Source: an uncultured delta proteobacterium
Lineage (GTDB): Bacteria; Desulfobacterota; RBG-13-43-22
Reading direction: 5' to 3'
NCBI GenBank assembly: GCA_963711835.1
Contig: CAVQFQ010000025.1
Location: forward strand, 32,001 to 96,000
Length of the DNA: 64,000 nt
Part shown: piece after piece, positions 32,249 through 46,613 of the stretch
Numbering within the stretch: the first letter of the stretch is position 1
Layout of the letters: every line of letters starts with the position of its first letter
Translations under genes and position numbers: made by a program
The notes under the pieces: generated by a model
Databases searched by the model: none
Told to the model about the DNA's origin: nothing
What the model saw: the letters and a program-made list of their open reading frames with translations, nothing else

Positions 32249-32275
32249 TTTAAATTTATTGCGGAAAGGTAAAAA

Positions 32276-33547
32276 ATGATTTCAAAACCTATCCATCTGG
32301 TAGTCGTTCATAGTGGAGATTCAAATTGAAAGCCCTGCGAGCGGGCGCTGGATGCGGCTCAAAAGATAAAGGATCGTTTTGGCAATGCCATCCGATTCGA
32401 AGCCTTTACCATTGCTTCGGAAGAAGGAAAGGCCTTTAAAGTCACCACCTCAACCAATGTCTTTGTAAATGGGGAACTGCTTCCCCTAAACACCTGGCTG
32501 GAGGAAGAGAAATTCGTTCAGTATATTCAGGAAGCTATCGGAGGAAAGGAAAAAGCAGCCGGAAAGATTGAGGTACACGAAAAGTTCGACGTGGTGATCA
32601 TTGGCGGCGGCCCGGCCGGATTGACGGCAGGTATCTATTGTGCTCGCGCCAGGCTGAAAACCATCTTATTGGAAGGGGCCAGCCTTGGTGGTCAGGTGGC
32701 TATGACGGACAAGATTGAAAATTACCCGGGGTACACCGGCGAAAGCGGCCCTGAATTAATTAATACTATGGAAAGGCAGGCCAGGAAGTTCGGTCTTGAG
32801 ATACAAACGTTCAAAACGGTGACCCAGATCATGGGAGACGGGTTGCTCAAAGAAGTCTATGCCGGAAATGATCTTTATCCCTGCGAGGCGCTTATCTTAG
32901 CCACCGGCCTTAAGACATCGGAATTAAATCTTGAAAAAGAAGATTATTTCAGGGGCAAAGGCCTGTCGTATTGTGCCGTTTGTGATGCTAATTTTTTTGT
33001 CGGAAAGAAAGTTGTGGTCGTCGGGGGCGGGGACACCGCGGCTGAAGATGCCTTGTACCTGTCCAAATTTGCCTCACAGGTTTTTATTGTCCACAGAAGG
33101 GACGAGTTGCGGGCGGCAAAAATATTACAAGAAGCCGTTTCCTGCAATGAAAAGATCACCGTCTTGTGGAGCCATGTCGTCCAGAGTCTGGTTGGGGACA
33201 CGGTGTTGGAGGGGCTGGTTTTGAGGGATCTGAAGACCGGAAACGAAACCAGGCTGGATGTGGAGGGTTTTTTCGTTGCCATTGGATCTCGTCCCTACAC
33301 CGGCTTCATTAAAAACCTGGTGGCTATGGATGAACAAGGGTTTGTCCTGGTAAATTCCAGGATGGAGACTTCCTATCCAGGTATCTTTGCGGCTGGTGAT
33401 ATCAGAGACACCCCTTTGAGACAGGTATCCACAGCCGTTGGCGATGGGGCCATTGCGGCCATATCGGCTGAAAAATTTGTCAGAGACGTGAAGGATAAAG
33501 GCGAGTGTAAACTACCCGAATCAAAAACGGCCTCCTTTCCTTTTTGA
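32276..33547 (+). CDS. trxB: Putative selenoprotein: N-terminal UxxC thioredoxin-like domain fused to thioredoxin reductase
   Basis: ATG 32276 (GGAAAGG RBS) is in frame with the TrxR ORF; the only stop is TGA 32327 in U-K-P-C; TrxR motifs GGGPAG, CAVCD, GGGDTA, HRRD. Confidence 0.85.
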
Positions 33548-33550
33548 TTC

Positions 33551-34498
33551 ATGGTTCTGAAAAACAGAATGCCTCCAGTAACTATGTATATCATAGGCGG
33601 TTTCCTTGGTTCCGGGAAGACCACTTTTTTGCAAACCCTGTTGGATTGGCAGGGCGATCTTTCCTCCACCGCTGTTATGGTTAACGAATTTGGGGAAATC
33701 TCGGTTGACGGGATGCTCCTGGATTCGAAAGGTAGCCAGCTTGTGGAATTGGCCAGCGGATGCATCTGCTGCTCCATGAGAGGGGAATTTATCAAGAGTT
33801 TGGAGAATGTTTTAGATAATTTTACGATTACCAGAATTTTTGTTGAGACAACGGGCGTGGCCGATACCTTGGAACTTATTTCGGTTCTGAAAGAATCCAA
33901 GGTCTCGGAACGTGTTGCCCTGAAAAAGATTATTTGCGTCCTGGATGCCGACCTCTGGCCGGGAAGAGATAATTTTGGGCTGGTTTTTTTAAATCAAATA
34001 AAGGCTGCCGATCTGATCCTTCTCAATAAAGTCGATCTCGTCGAAAAAGGTCAGGTGGTTCCCTTTATGGAAGAGATACAAAAGATAAATCCCGACAGTC
34101 TGGTCATCCCTACTTATTACTGCAGGATAGACCTGGATCTGCTTTTGGATGGGGAAGAACGAGATCGCCCCCTGCGCCTCGACACAGTGAATGGGCTGCC
34201 AGACTTTAATTCTAATCTGGAGAAGCCCATCGGTTTTGCGACTTTTCTTTTTCAGGAGGAGGGCTCGCTCTCCGAGGCTTGTTTCAAAGAGTTCCTTGAT
34301 AAAATCCCTCCCCACATTTTTCGTATTAAGGGGCAAGTAAGGTTTTCGGGAAAGGCTTTTCTGCTGAACCATGTCGGAGGCAGGAGCCAATGGATCGAAT
34401 CTGAAAACAAAAGTGGCTCCCAATTGGTCTTTATCGGCTGGAATATGGATACGGAGGCCCTTAAGGCCGATCTGGCAGCTTGCCTGGAGGGCAAGTGA
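33551..34498 (+). CDS. CobW/COG0523 metallochaperone GTPase
   Basis: GFLGSGKTT, NEFGE, GCICC, ETTG, NKVD, RIKG. Confidence 0.9.
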   Translation: MVLKNRMPPVTMYIIGGFLGSGKTTFLQTLLDWQGDLSSTAVMVNEFGEISVDGMLLDSKGSQLVELASGCICCSMRGEFIKSLENVLDNFTITRIFVETTGVADTLELISVLKESKVSERVALKKIICVLDADLWPGRDNFGLVFLNQIKAADLILLNKVDLVEKGQVVPFMEEIQKINPDSLVIPTYYCRIDLDLLLDGEERDRPLRLDTVNGLPDFNSNLEKPIGFATFLFQEEGSLSEACFKEFLDKIPPHIFRIKGQVRFSGKAFLLNHVGGRSQWIESENKSGSQLVFIGWNMDTEALKADLAACLEGK

Positions 34499-35040: not shown

Positions 35041-35259
35041 GTGGCGAACGAAATAAAGACAAGCAAGTTGCAGATTATTGCCAATACGGGGAACTGAATA
35101 CCGATTATTAAAATAGCCCTGGAAGGGACTGAAGGGGTTGAAAAGGCCGAGGTCGATATTCAATATGCCACCGTATGGCATGATCCGGCTAAGGTTTCTG
35201 CTGATCAGTTGGCCGCCATAGTAACCAAAGCAGGAAAAGATTGTTTTCCTGTAAGTTAA
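35041..35259 (+). CDS. Putative HMA-fold (CopZ/MerP-like) selenoprotein, one Sec
   Basis: MANEIKTSKLQIIANTGN-U-IPIIKIALEGTEGVEKAEVDIQYATVWHDPAKVSADQLAAIVTKAG; TGA 35095; CCC-TGGAA-GGG hairpin. Confidence 0.75.
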
Positions 35260-35283: not shown

Positions 35284-36333
35284 ATGAGCATTCCAAAAGA
35301 CAAAATGACCCCCAAGGAAAGAATGGGCTCCCTACTTCAAGGAAAACCCATTGACAGAGTCCCTTGCATTCCGGTTATCCTTAACGGTTGTGCCAGAGTG
35401 GCAGGCTATACCATCAAGGAAATGACCCTGGACGGAGAGAAGTTCGGTAAGGCTAATGTAGCCACTTATAAAAAATACGGCCATGATATGATTTGTCTGC
35501 TTGATGCCACGGGTACCACAGCCGAGGCAGCGGGAACCAAACTGAATTATCCGGATGAGATGCCTGCTTTTGTGGAAGACCCCTTGATCAAGTCCAGGGA
35601 CGATTTAAAAAAGCTGCGTCCACTGGACCCCACCAAGGATGGCCGCCTCAACAATTACCTGATAGCCACGGAGTATTGCGTTTCAGAAGTAGGCAACGAG
35701 GTGTTTGTCGGGACCCTCTTTGCCGGCGCCTTTACCACCGCAGCCTGTTTGAGAGGCACTGAGGCCCTTTTGAAAGATATCTATAAAGATAAAGAAATGG
35801 TCCATCATCTGGTGAGATGGGCAACCGACGTCACCATACCTTTTTTAGATGAAGTCATCAAAAGAGGGGGCGTTCCGTTTTTGTGTGAGCCGGTAGGTAC
35901 GGGAAGCATCCTGAATCCCAAAGCCTTTGCTGAATTTGTAGAACCGTATCAGAAAGAATTAAACGATTTTGTAAAATCTAAAGGTCTCCCCGCGCTAAAT
36001 CATATCTGTGGGAATTCCCTGCCGATCATGGAACCTTGGCTCCGGACCGGCCCGACGGTCATTAGTGTGGATCGGGTGGATATCGGGGAGATCTCAAAAA
36101 AGTTTGGAGATAAGGTGGGATTGTGTGGGAATGTCAATCCCGGGAAGACGCTCTTTATGGGTTCCCCGGAAGCGGTCGATGCCGAGGTAAAGGATATTAT
36201 GGAAAAAGCTGGGAAAAATCCCTGCGGTTTTGTGCTGGCTTCGGGGTGCGAAGTGCCCAGTGAAACGCCTCCGGAGAATATCTTTGCCATGATGGATGCC
36301 GCGAGAAAATATGGGCAACATCCATTACCTTAG
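35284..36333 (+). CDS. MtaA/CmuA (URO-D-fold) methyltransferase
   Basis: MTPKER, DRVP, NHICG, GNVNP, ASGCE. Confidence 0.88.
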   Translation: MSIPKDKMTPKERMGSLLQGKPIDRVPCIPVILNGCARVAGYTIKEMTLDGEKFGKANVATYKKYGHDMICLLDATGTTAEAAGTKLNYPDEMPAFVEDPLIKSRDDLKKLRPLDPTKDGRLNNYLIATEYCVSEVGNEVFVGTLFAGAFTTAACLRGTEALLKDIYKDKEMVHHLVRWATDVTIPFLDEVIKRGGVPFLCEPVGTGSILNPKAFAEFVEPYQKELNDFVKSKGLPALNHICGNSLPIMEPWLRTGPTVISVDRVDIGEISKKFGDKVGLCGNVNPGKTLFMGSPEAVDAEVKDIMEKAGKNPCGFVLASGCEVPSETPPENIFAMMDAARKYGQHPLP

Positions 36334-36349: not shown

Positions 36350-36580
36350 ATGGAAGACATAAAAGAGATTATCATTAAGATCCCCAGCTTAACTTGAACT
36401 ACTTGAGAGGTGATGGTTAACGCGGCTCTGGATGAGTCCGTCGGCGTTCTTGAGTATGAAACAAGTATTGCAACACTGCAAACACGGGTGAAATTTAATT
36501 CAAATCAAACCAACGAAGAGACCTTGATGGAAAATATCAAGAAGAAAACAGGTTATAGTAACCTATACGTACTCTCATAA
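36350..36580 (+). CDS. Putative HMA-fold selenoprotein with UxxU motif
   Basis: AGGAGG RBS; MEDIKEIIIKIPSLT-U-TT-U-EVMVNAALDESVGV...TGY; TGA 36395 and 36404 occupy both Cys of the MTCxxC motif. Confidence 0.85.
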
Positions 36581-43160: not shown

Positions 43161-46100
43161 ATGCCGAGTGGGGAAATTGAAAAAGTTTTAGTCATTTTTC
43201 AACCCTCAGGATGTCGAGGGCACATCGAACCAGGAAAGACCCTCAAACAGGCCTCCGTGGCCTTAGGCGTGGATATTGAAGGGGTCTGCGGGGAACAGGC
43301 TATTTGCGGGACCTGCAAGGTTCGGGTCGAGGAAGGGGAATTCGAAAAATACGGTATCCGCTCCACCCGAGATCATCTTTCCGCTATGGGGCCTTCGGAG
43401 AGAAAATTCTTTAACCTGCGGCAGGTCGACGAGGGCTACCGGCTGGCCTGTCAGGCCCAGATCCTGGGCGATGTGGTTATCTTCGTCCCGGAAGAAAGCC
43501 GGATGGGTAAGCAGGTGGTCCGAAAGGCGCCTACCGCGCGGCCGATTGAAATCAAACCGGCGGTCAGAAAATATCCGGTCGAGCTGATCAAAGCCACCCT
43601 GGAAGACAATATCGGTGATTGGGAACGATTGACGGCGGCCCTGGAGGAAAAATACGGCCTGAAGCAGTTGACCTTAGACTACGAAGTGCTCATGGATTTA
43701 CAGACCATCGTCCGCCAGGGGGAGTGGAAGATTACGGTTACGGTCTGGCAGGGCCGGGAAGTGATCCGGGTCGAACCCGGAATCAAGGAAAAGGGCTATG
43801 GGCTGGCGGTCGATGTGGGCACTTCCACGGTAGCCGGTTACTTGTGCGATATAAGCGATGGGACGGTGATCGCCACCGCCTCCATGATGAATCCCCAGAT
43901 TGTCTATGGGGAAGATGTCATGTCCCGGATCAGTTACACCATGACCAATTCGGACGGCTTGGAGATCCTGAACCAGGCTATCGTGGACGGTCTGAACGGT
44001 ATCGTGGCCGAAGTAGCGGAAACCGCCGGTATCAAGCGCCAGGATATCCTGGATATGAGCATCGTAGGCAACACCTGTATGCACCATATCTATTTGAACA
44101 TCGATCCCAAGTACATCGGGCGTTCTCCCTTTGCGCCGAGTTTACACCATTCGATGGATATCAAGGCCCGTGATTTCGGCTTCAAGATTCCCCAGGAAAA
44201 AGAAAGGGAAGACAAAGGGAAGTATGCCCCCTGCCGGGTGGAATGTCCGGCGGGGGTTAACGTCGATGATTTCTTATATCTCATGGCGCAGCATAAGTTT
44301 AAAGAGGCCCTGGAACTGGTCCGATTATCCTATCCCTTTTCCGGCGTCTGCGGTCGGGTCTGTACCCATCCCTGCGAAGGGATATGCGAAAGGGGTAAAG
44401 TGGATGCGCCCATTTCCATCCGGGCGGCCCATCGTTTTCTGGCTGATTATGAATTGACCCAGGGAAGGGAAAAGGCCGCTCCCGTGGAATTGAAAAAGGC
44501 CTCCCGGATCGCTATCGTAGGTTCCGGGCCGGCCGGTCTGGCCTGTGCTTATGATTTGATTCGCCGGGGACACCCTATAACCGTTTTTGAGGCCAAGGCC
44601 CAGGCCGGAGGTATGCTGCGCTACGGCATTCCGGAATACCGGCTGCCGAAAGGTATTCTGGAAGATGAAATCCATTACCTGGAAGAGTTGGGTGTGGAGA
44701 TAAAGACCAATACCGCCGTGAAAAACGTGGAGGATATCTTCAACGAGGGATATCAAGCTATCTTCCTGGCGACCGGGACCTGGAAAAGCCAGAAATTGAA
44801 CCTACCGGGGGAAGACAGCCCGGATGTAATCTATGCCCTCGATTTTCTAAGAGAGGTGAATTCAGGCGAGAAAGTCGGACTGGGCGGCCGGGTGGCGGTT
44901 ATCGGCGGAGGCAGTGTGGCTGTGGATGCAGCCCGGCTATCCAAGCGTCTGGGCGCCCGGGAAATTCACCTGATCTGTCTGGAATCCACCGACCTGACCT
45001 GCCGGGATCGGATGCCGGCCCAGGATCTGGAAATCGAACAAGCCCGCCAAGAAGGGATTATTATCCATCCTTCCCTGGGCGTTGGGAAAATTATCTCCGA
45101 AGAGGGCAAGGTCAAGGCGGTCGACACAGTCGGTTGTGTGTCGGTTTATGATGCCGAAGGCCGGTTTGACCCGCAGTTTTCCAAAGAGCCCGCTCCCTCG
45201 ATTTCCGTAGATACCGTGATTGTGGCCGTAGGCCAGAGGGCCGAGGATAACGTTTTCTCGGAAATCAATCGGCACTCTTCGGGGATCATCCAGGTTGATG
45301 AAATTACTCTCGAAACAAACCAAAAGGGGGTTTTTGCCGGTGGTGATGTAGCTACCGGCCCCGCCAATGTGATCAAGGCCGTTCGGGCCGGAAAAGAGGC
45401 CGCTATTTCCATCGAGCTTTATCTGGCCGGGATGGATATGAAGGAAGACCGGCCTAAACCTTTAAAGGCTGTCGAAGATGTACCCAAAGAAGGGGTCAGG
45501 AAAGAAGCCCGCCAGGAGGTTCCGGAACGGCCCCTGGATCAGCGTCAGGGTTTTGATGAGGTGGAATTGGGCTTTGAGGAATCCCAGGTGGTTCAAGAAT
45601 CGCTCCGCTGTCTCCACTGCGCGGTGTATGCCCAGAAGGACGTCTCCGATGGTGAAGAGGCCCGGGGCTGGGGTATCAAAATCGCCCCCGGGGCGTACAT
45701 CCATTGTCTGCCGATTGAGGCCGGTTTTGTAGGGGCCGATAATGTGGGCGTGCTGATTGCCGAAGCACCCTATAACCAGGATAGCCTCGAGCTGGTTATC
45801 GATATCGGCACCAACGGGGAAATCATTCTGGGCAACCGGAAGAGGTTGATTTCCGCTTCCTGCGCCACGGGACCGGCCTTTGAGGGGGCCCAGTTGCGTT
45901 TCGGTATGCGGGCCGCCCCTGGGGCCATTGAAAAAATTGAAATTGATAAAGAGACCCAGGAGGTCCGTTTCAAGGTTATTGACGAGACCCGCTGGAATAC
46001 CGAAATGAAACCGGAAGAGATAAAGGCCAAGGGCATCTGCGGCTCCGGTATCATTGATGCCATCCCGCAACTCTTCTTAGCCGGTATTATTGATAAAACG

Positions 46101-46613
46101 GGAAAGTTCGTTAAAGAACTCCAGCATCCCCGGTTGCGGCAAGTGGAGGGTCAATACGAATACATTATTGCCTGGGCCCACGAGACCTCCATCGGCCAGG
46201 ATGTGGTCGTCTGCCAGGATGATATCCGGGCCATCCAGTTGGGTAAGGCCGCCATGTACGCCGGCAGCAAAATCCTGATGGAGACCCTGGGGATTGAAAA
46301 GCTGGACAAGGTGATTTTAGCCGGGGCCTTCGGAAGTTACATTGACAAGCTGTCGGCCGCGATTCTGGGGATGTTCCCGGATTGTGATCCCAAAAATGTG
46401 TATTCGGTAGGCAATGCGGCCGGGGACGGGGCTCGGATGGCTTTGCTCAATGTCGATAAACGGAGAGAGGCCGATGAGTATGCCAGAAAGGTGGAGTATA
46501 TCGAGCTCACCATCTCCCCGAGATTCGAAAAGATATTTGCCCAATCGATGTGGTTTCCCCATATGAAGGACCCTTTTCCGAACTTGCAGGAGTATCTCCC
46601 GGCCAAGAAATAG
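43161..46613 (+). CDS. ASKHA corrinoid activator with an inserted GltD/SudA-like FAD/Fe-S oxidoreductase module
   Basis: RACE motifs on both sides of an insert containing APCRVECP, CGRVCTHPCE, GSGPAG, GGGSVA, FAGGD and RCLHC. Confidence 0.9.
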   Translation: MPSGEIEKVLVIFQPSGCRGHIEPGKTLKQASVALGVDIEGVCGEQAICGTCKVRVEEGEFEKYGIRSTRDHLSAMGPSERKFFNLRQVDEGYRLACQAQILGDVVIFVPEESRMGKQVVRKAPTARPIEIKPAVRKYPVELIKATLEDNIGDWERLTAALEEKYGLKQLTLDYEVLMDLQTIVRQGEWKITVTVWQGREVIRVEPGIKEKGYGLAVDVGTSTVAGYLCDISDGTVIATASMMNPQIVYGEDVMSRISYTMTNSDGLEILNQAIVDGLNGIVAEVAETAGIKRQDILDMSIVGNTCMHHIYLNIDPKYIGRSPFAPSLHHSMDIKARDFGFKIPQEKEREDKGKYAPCRVECPAGVNVDDFLYLMAQHKFKEALELVRLSYPFSGVCGRVCTHPCEGICERGKVDAPISIRAAHRFLADYELTQGREKAAPVELKKASRIAIVGSGPAGLACAYDLIRRGHPITVFEAKAQAGGMLRYGIPEYRLPKGILEDEIHYLEELGVEIKTNTAVKNVEDIFNEGYQAIFLATGTWKSQKLNLPGEDSPDVIYALDFLREVNSGEKVGLGGRVAVIGGGSVAVDAARLSKRLGAREIHLICLESTDLTCRDRMPAQDLEIEQARQEGIIIHPSLGVGKIISEEGKVKAVDTVGCVSVYDAEGRFDPQFSKEPAPSISVDTVIVAVGQRAEDNVFSEINRHSSGIIQVDEITLETNQKGVFAGGDVATGPANVIKAVRAGKEAAISIELYLAGMDMKEDRPKPLKAVEDVPKEGVRKEARQEVPERPLDQRQGFDEVELGFEESQVVQESLRCLHCAVYAQKDVSDGEEARGWGIKIAPGAYIHCLPIEAGFVGADNVGVLIAEAPYNQDSLELVIDIGTNGEIILGNRKRLISASCATGPAFEGAQLRFGMRAAPGAIEKIEIDKETQEVRFKVIDETRWNTEMKPEEIKAKGICGSGIIDAIPQLFLAGIIDKTGKFVKELQHPRLRQVEGQYEYIIAWAHETSIGQDVVVCQDDIRAIQLGKAAMYAGSKILMETLGIEKLDKVILAGAFGSYIDKLSAAILGMFPDCDPKNVYSVGNAAGDGARMALLNVDKRREADEYARKVEYIELTISPRFEKIFAQSMWFPHMKDPFPNLQEYLPAKK

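Follow-up and report, generated by a model that had tools for sequence, protein, structure and literature searches.

The window, a stretch of 64,000 nucleotides to which all positions below refer, carries on its forward strand a fusion gene (32276..33547, +) that joins a TsoX domain to a low-Mr thioredoxin reductase (TrxR). The product comprises 423 amino acids with a predicted selenocysteine (Sec) at residue 18, encoded by an in-frame TGA (32327..32329, +) as the first residue of a U-K-P-C motif. On comparative sequence evidence, this TGA is very likely read as selenocysteine. The fusion protein is, on balance, best regarded as a self-contained NADPH reductase of the selenoproteins encoded in the same cassette, to which it would relay electrons via its own predicted U18/C21 pair.

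A single reading frame extends from ATG 32276 to TGA 33545-33547, and its sole internal stop is TGA 32327-32329 at codon 18, around which the fusion protein reads MISKPIHLVVVHSGDSN-U-KPC. The initial annotation had described this frame correctly from the letters as open to ATG 32276 apart from the TGA. It was equally right that the listed reductase starts inside the FAD-binding strand, since the table-11 open reading frame begins at GTG 32591, which is residue 106, 105 codons past ATG 32276, and falls within DVVIIGGGPAG (residues 105-115). Between TGA 32327 and 32591 there is no in-frame ATG, GTG or TTG, and no ribosome-binding site is found within 10 nt before 32591. A putative ribosome-binding site, AAGGT (32266..32270, +), lies 5 nt before ATG 32276, and GAGGT or GGAGGT stands at the equivalent place before the start in two related loci (L042 and L045). 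The gene starts 27 nt past a DUF6951 gene, and a CobW gene begins 3 nt past its end. The promoter and terminator scan gave 8 and 12 sites, respectively, vs. 13.4 and 14.0 expected by chance. In RNA run X1 (share 0.12), one 234-nt contig with a depth of 2.1 covers 32350-32581 with one difference; because it stops short of the TGA, it says nothing for expression or read-through.

The proposed selenocysteine read-through is supported by the invariance of the TGA, by the selenocysteine machinery of the genome, and by purifying selection on the codons before the TGA. The fusion and its TGA are retained in all five fused loci (the window, L042, L043, L044 and L045), so that the upstream frame is indeed kept in relatives, and the TGA is also present in 10 of 10 stand-alone TsoX loci aligned. 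Cysteine takes the aligned position in one homologue (P0010, CTSC) and in thioredoxins. The window genome encodes tRNA-Sec (75 bits) and SelB (385 bits), together with a gene assigned to SelD by a motif only; SelB is present in both of the two genomes of fused relatives. In pairwise comparison of the four diverged loci, the 11 codons that precede the TGA show a pN of 0.06-0.20 vs. a pS of 0.64-1.16 in all six pairs, and the remaining TsoX domain shows a pN of 0.15-0.28 vs. a pS of 0.54-0.82, like the TrxR half. These observations bear directly on the opposite reading, in which the TGA is a true stop, the TrxR starts downstream, and the upstream frame is a relic. Database records appear to favor it, as all five matches from one homologue search start past the TGA, and the hairpin described below has no unusual stability. 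However, selection before the TGA, the invariance of the codon and the Sec machinery, together with the lack of a usable start before 32591 and the truncation of the FAD-binding strand that a start at this point would entail, make a true stop extremely unlikely. Among database proteins, seven that represent the fusion (P0002-P0006, P0025 and P0026) begin after the Sec position, as do most TsoX representatives, of which 5 of 54 keep the N-terminal motif. Two further representatives (P0007 and P0008) show tryptophan at the Sec position, probably a TGA called as Trp.

The predicted SECIS element (32343..32360, +) comprises an apical stem CGC/GCG, a UGGAU loop that begins 19 nt after the TGA, a bulged G and a lower stem. 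The letters of the hairpin originally proposed, GAGC-GGG-CGC-TGGAT-GCG-GCTC, are present at 32339-32360 and its loop is conserved, but another fold of the window sequence has the lower energy (-8.4 kcal/mol for the hairpin vs. -11.7 kcal/mol for the minimum-energy fold). Folding energy was dropped as proof of a SECIS element, the region being no stabler than shuffles (z 0.16). The hairpin differs from the minimum-energy fold in three of five loci and reaches -7.5 kcal/mol or lower in three of five. With the folding energy unremarkable, the hairpin is credited because it is conserved. The codons GCG CTG GAT GCG, located 15-26 nt past the TGA, are invariant in all four diverged loci and stand out against near-saturated silent sites. 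SECIS-like pairing is kept in 28 of 30 cells (93%), including one G-C/U-A compensation, vs. 33-43% in slid registers; covariation compared with shuffles (43 of 500) shows no clear excess. A hairpin is also present at the equivalent place in stand-alone TsoX genes, with silent-site U-A/C-G compensation (6 against 4). In the bacterial SECIS model given in PMC13188914, a G occupies the first two loop positions, the spacing is 16-37 nt, and the energy is at most -7.5 kcal/mol. The window hairpin agrees with this model in loop G, spacing (19 nt) and energy (-8.4 kcal/mol), though not as the minimum-energy fold. An NGGAW loop closed by three pairs, a pattern picked after the window hairpin had been seen, follows 717 of 125,324 TGAs genome-wide. 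It is found in three of six other candidate Sec genes examined, namely, both HMA-like neighbors and an MvhD-like gene, the labels of these genes being assigned from motifs.

By its profile score, the N-terminal domain (residues 7-86; 32294..32533, +) is a member of the catalogued UxxC selenoprotein family TsoX. The NF045809 model gives 98.1 bits for the domain and 94.3 bits in the full protein, with a cut-off of 52. Table 1 of PMC13188914, which covers 119 families, includes TsoX among the predicted UxxC selenoproteins, with one Sec and with credit to Haft and Tolstoy 2025, and gives no function for it. The family motif of NF045809 is HSGNPxU, and the fusion domain has the variant HSGD[S/P]N-U-KPC, which reads HSGDSN-U-KPC in the window and HSGDPN-U-KPC in all four fused relatives. 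The domain resembles the rest of the family in its UxxC with TGA, in the SECIS-like hairpin at the equivalent position, and, in L033 and L045, in being preceded by TsoA-like and TsoR-like genes. Unlike other TsoX proteins, it is joined to a TrxR, its SECIS register is shifted, and it lies within a corrinoid methyltransferase cassette. The AlphaFold model of the domain (AF2, 14-row alignment) has a mean pLDDT of 84.8 and matches thioredoxins, with Foldseek TM values of 0.5-0.7 and VIA-align top matches to thioredoxins (best Z 10.8, rmsd 1.8 Å over 81 residues); U18 is placed at the start of the first helix. A Pfam assignment was rejected, as it consisted of a weak Thioredoxin_2 match alone (E 0.058), with PF26315 listed on homologues. 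The structure prediction and these comparisons agree with the thioredoxin-like fold with UxxC that had been suggested for this region. The description of the domain as cryptic holds only in part, because it belongs to an already known family and carries threonine in place of the cis-proline.

This threonine, Thr60 (32453..32455, +), is profile-aligned with the cis-proline of thioredoxin GIPT and of 1nho AVPA. Threonine occupies the position in 14 of 14 aligned rows, and one of the 59 top homologues has proline there; the outgroup of MJ0307/MTH895 type retains proline. Consequently, of the features of a canonical thioredoxin, the predicted fold and the U/CxxC at helix 1 are found in the domain, whereas the cis-proline before beta-3 is not. 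The cis-proline likely shapes substrate binding, and ordinary disulfide exchange is therefore not guaranteed for a TsoX with threonine instead. Its absence makes a metalloid-binding role a real rival: instead of reducing disulfides, TsoX could serve as an arm that binds or carries metal(loid)s, in which U18/C21 would take methyl-selenium, arsenic or mercury species from the HMA-like proteins and pass them to the flavin dithiol. Mercuric reductase has an N-terminal metal-binding domain, and the carrier arm would follow a like logic on a TrxR scaffold. In PMC2757866, the cis-proline is described as more conserved than CxxC among proteins of the thioredoxin fold and, from a citation therein, as possibly blocking metal binding. 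However, this link is a citation in a review and concerns proteins other than TsoX. All 14 aligned rows retain the second cysteine of UxxC, as a redox pair does, and the reductase half is a regular TrxR, with its CxxC present and a score above the equivalog cut-off. Set against these points, a carrier arm in place of a reductase is rather unlikely.

The low-Mr thioredoxin reductase domain (residues 105-402; 32588..33481, +) scores 359.4 bits with TIGR01292, vs. a cut-off of 343.45. It contains the TrxR CxxC motif CAVC (residues 233-236; 32972-32983, +), the TrxR motif GGGDTA (33023-33040, +) and the NADPH motif HRRDELR (33092-33112, +), corresponding to CxxC, GxGxxA and HRRxxxR of NADPH-dependent TrxR as given in PMC10880999. 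The score and the motifs bear out the fusion to an intact NADPH-type TrxR. The HRR motif is kept in eight of nine fused sequences. In the ninth, P0003, HWLNELQ replaces HRRxxxR, suggesting another electron donor or an error. A linker of about 15 residues (32540..32584, +), without indels in nine fused sequences, connects the two domains and includes residues of low pLDDT (91-95). The full-length AlphaFold model has a pTM of 0.56 and an rmsd of about 19 Å to TrxRs with wrong domain packing; because the arrangement is unreliable, it is uninformative on docking. The window genome encodes two more TrxRs, a housekeeping enzyme and a Cys-type glutaredoxin-TrxR fusion (CPDC; L008:1114-2475 on contig C5 of G000), and the TsoX-TrxR copy is therefore probably dedicated.

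The search for fused homologues showed that the fusion recurs in relatives. It is found in L042 (a Syntrophaceae MAG), in L043 (=G005, of the window's family) and in L045 (a metagenome), together with a near-identical locus, L044. The fused loci are few and related, with three diverged ones beyond the window and one near copy, and therefore do not constitute independent evidence. TsoX occurs in 4 of 20 same-family genomes (one fused), above the cut-off in 9 of 400 phylum genomes (none fused), and in 4 of 70 genomes of the order of G408 (one fused). Searching 1.84 billion representatives with a profile yielded 89 matches, of which three are fused to TrxR and one (P0059) to an ArsM-like protein. 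In P0059, TsoX is joined to an ArsM-like selenoprotein methyltransferase. All 10 fused TsoX domains form one branch with a support of 99/98 in a 41-row tree that omits P0006 (too short), L044 (a near copy), L031 and most lower-ranked representatives; this topology is consistent with a single fusion event. Other scans were less productive. A single-sequence pattern scan of genome contigs returned 241 stretches, none of which was confirmed as a fusion; the alignment-based rescan confirmed 2 of 22 in genome contigs and 2 of 479 in metagenomes. A word-index search for shorter forms yielded none of five candidates, which is a miss of sensitivity, as the profile search gave 89 matches.

Split operons of TsoX and TrxR were absent from 11 stand-alone loci scanned for TrxR motifs, and in L030 a fragment of a TrxR is located about 1 kb upstream of TsoX. 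By motif, stand-alone TsoX is near TsoA in 6 of the 11 loci. In three loci (L030:8448-8756, L032 and L040), a DsrE-like gene (YV-U-GVC) directly follows stand-alone TsoX; the copy scanned scores above the cut-off of no NCBIfam model. The fused copy is the sole TsoX of the window genome. Another contig of this genome carries an operon of TsoR-like, TsoA and TsoB-like selenoproteins without TsoX (G000 C13, about 71500-75700; L051); a Sec rhodanese gene precedes this operon, and selB lies about 4 kb past it. That TsoX mostly occurs without TrxR, and that L033 contains a second small thioredoxin-like gene (HUIPC-like) and a second TrxR, could be taken to mean that the two domains are tethered and uncoupled, with the TrxR serving another thioredoxin, such as the HUIPC-like one of L033, and TsoX having a separate role. 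Such an arrangement is very improbable in view of the one conserved fusion, the linker length fixed in nine of nine aligned sequences, and the failure to find a separate thioredoxin gene in the window cassette.

The fusion gene lies in a same-strand run in which genes for an MtaA-like protein, a corrinoid protein, an AcsV/RACo activator and DUF6951 precede it, and genes for CobW, a C-GCAxxG protein, a one-Sec HMA-like protein, an MtaA-like protein, a UxxU HMA-like protein, YedF and DUF2284 follow it. The CobW-family GTPase (33551..34498, +) is directly 3' of the fusion, likewise in L042 and L045. The one-Sec HMA-like protein (NTGN-U-IP; 35041..35259, +), conserved in L033 and L042, is a candidate partner whose gene contains a CCC-UGGAA-GGG hairpin. 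No NCBIfam model reaches its cut-off with this protein (best NF041115, 37 of 95 bits), which is thus possibly an unnamed selenoprotein subfamily; it has no match in 400 phylum genomes, which indicates that the cassette is rare. Next come an MtaA/CmuA-like (UroD-fold) methyltransferase with a His-Cys-Cys motif (35284..36333, +), with orthologues in L033 and L042, and an HMA-like protein with a predicted U-T-T-U motif (36350..36580, +), the second candidate partner, conserved in the same two loci. In the latter gene, one UGGAU-loop hairpin lies 16-37 nt from both TGAs and could serve both. The label "DF-like" given earlier to one of these small neighbors did not survive, as both match HMA/CopZ/MerP-type models only.

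The order TsoX-TrxR, HMA-Sec, MtaA-like, HMA-UxxU is kept in all three loci that are long enough (the window, L033 and L042). Genes for corrinoid proteins are close by in the window, L042 and L045. In L033 and L042, these genes are followed by one for an ArsM/AhpD-type selenoprotein, of which the window genome has none above the cut-off, the best score being 187 of 510 bits. Relatives of the cassette MtaA fall into 16 further clusters (79-87% identity), among them an orthologue with 80% identity in the named species Phosphitispora fastidiosa and one in a Desulfocapsa MAG. The wider corrinoid methyl-transfer region of the window (22056-47775) comprises four MtaA-like His-Cys-Cys enzymes, two corrinoid proteins, two AcsV/RACo activators, an MtrH/MtgA-like gene and two PAS sensor/response-regulator pairs. 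An AcsV/RACo-type corrinoid activator (43161-46613, +; 1150 aa) contains a GltD-like NAD(P)/FAD insert of roughly 480 residues, which could be its own electron supply.

In the preferred mechanism, electrons would pass from NADPH to FAD and on to the CAVC disulfide (C233/C236), as in the TrxR family. From C233/C236 they would be transferred to the U18-K-P-C21 selenol/thiol pair, and U18/C21 would then reduce Se-Se or Se-S bonds of the co-encoded selenoproteins. By analogy with AhpF and other Trx-TrxR chimeras, the TrxR-to-TsoX relay quite likely takes place within the homodimer; it is suggested by the fusion itself, by the fixed-length linker, and by the precedents of AhpF and chimeric TrxA-TrxB. 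Both halves are intact and under similar selection. The neighborhood and the TsoX-ArsM fusion suggest, somewhat less firmly, that the cassette selenoproteins are the acceptors. The U-T-T-U HMA-like protein and, in loci that encode it, the ArsM/AhpD selenoprotein are the likeliest of these; in relatives, the ArsM-like selenoprotein is as good a substrate candidate as the small HMA neighbors. Thiols do not readily reduce a diselenide of the UxxU type; this would account for the use of a selenol as donor. ArsM turnover forms disulfides that are proposed in PMC6138428 to be reduced by thioredoxin. The reductase reading must nevertheless accommodate the fact that most TsoX proteins are unfused (three of four in the family, nine of nine in the phylum sample, and three of four in the order of G408).

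The same neighborhood also provides arguments for the carrier arm, because the neighbors include HMA/MerP-like selenoproteins, a CobW GTPase, the ArsR-type TsoR and ArsM-like enzymes, and because TsoX is known fused to ArsM. A further alternative dispenses with a protein partner. The fusion could be a small-molecule selenium reductase, converting dimethyl diselenide, selenite or selenotrisulfides to methylselenol or selenide for the MtaA-like enzyme. The clusters described by Kountz and Balskus (PMC10418091), in which MtaA, corrinoid and RACE genes are tied to methyl-selenide metabolism and methylcobalamin:selenide transfer is demonstrated for one enzyme, lend it some plausibility, as the window cluster is like these mlp clusters and ClMlp2 moves methyl between methylcobalamin and selenide. 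Thioredoxin systems are described in PMC3511371 as reducing selenite and turning over methylselenol, YedF is encoded downstream, and all four MtaA-like proteins of the window have His-Cys-Cys. Nevertheless, this alternative leaves the co-travel of two HMA-like selenoproteins unexplained, and the MtrH/MtgA-like gene of the window is absent from described mlp clusters; a small-molecule reductase without a protein partner is improbable.

Reduction of the cassette selenoproteins would fit a corrinoid-dependent pathway that moves methyl groups onto or off selenium or a comparable soft metalloid, an assignment that is offered tentatively. The window shares with Type 1 mlp clusters several MtaA-like His-Cys-Cys methyltransferases, corrinoid proteins, RACE/AcsV-like activators, selenium genes and an anaerobic host, and the gene content of an mlp cluster (several SCMT-like His-Cys-Cys methyltransferases, a corrinoid protein and a RACE activator) is found in it. 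It differs from them by the additional MtrH/MtgA-like gene, and HMA, CobW and TrxR genes are not mentioned in the main text of PMC10418091, where "thioredoxin" occurs in the references alone. A more speculative and rather doubtful extension is that the cis-proline-less TsoX arm of the Sec TrxR carries a methyl-metalloid besides electrons. The fusion would then be the reducing hub of an undescribed mobile cassette of sediment anaerobes that moves methyl between B12 and protein-bound selenium or arsenic, comprising TsoX-TrxR, CobW, the one-Sec HMA, the MtaA-like protein, the UxxU HMA, a corrinoid protein and often ArsM/AhpD.

The fusions of TsoX to TrxR and to an ArsM-like protein name both a likely electron donor and a likely acceptor for this family, which can now be tested with one purified protein and NADPH. 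The bacterial selenoproteome thereby gains a low-Mr TrxR, in a form that gene callers shorten. The fused family is small, with 10 sequences in the tree, and has close Cys precedents. Neither a low-Mr TrxR nor a Sec Trx-TrxR fusion appears in the 119-family table of PMC13188914, and the words "Tso" and "fusion" are absent from the BSepDB main text (PMC13326102). Literature searches, with the TsoX-defining paper outside their scope, returned no paper on a TsoX-TrxR or Sec-Trx-TrxR fusion. NCBIfam types NF045809 as "equivalog_domain", and curators may therefore already have seen fused forms. Consequently, the TsoX family and the Cys Trx-TrxR architecture are already known, and what the searches did not turn up is a low-Mr TrxR with an N-terminal Sec Trx-fold domain in this cassette, which may have been noticed before.

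Among known systems, AhpF (PDB 1HYU; TIGR03140) has a similar arrangement of an N-terminal Trx-fold redox domain, a short linker and a TrxR module, and Foldseek aligns about 415 columns of it with the fusion model, whose packing is unreliable. The N-terminal domain of AhpF is a double Trx fold, whereas that of the fusion comprises about 90 aa and one Trx fold. The fusion scores 245.7 bits with TIGR03140, below the cut-off of 502.9, and it further differs from AhpF in having Sec instead of Cys, the NADPH-type HRRxxxR, and no peroxiredoxin among the neighbors scanned. Mammalian TrxR and thioredoxin-glutathione reductase (TGR) have a high-Mr scaffold with a C-terminal Cys-Sec. The fusion resembles them, by analogy only, as a pyridine-nucleotide flavoenzyme with a mobile Sec-Cys center; unlike them, it has a low-Mr scaffold and carries its Sec in an N-terminal Trx-fold domain. 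NTRC, Grx-TrxR and chimeric TrxA-TrxB, the last as described in PMC10880999, likewise combine a Trx-fold domain and a low-Mr TrxR in one chain. These are Cys enzymes, with the Trx domain of NTRC being C-terminal, whereas the fusion has Sec in an N-terminal domain. The Grx-TrxR of the same genome has a proline before beta-3 (LIPTVVF), in contrast to Thr60 of TsoX-TrxR.
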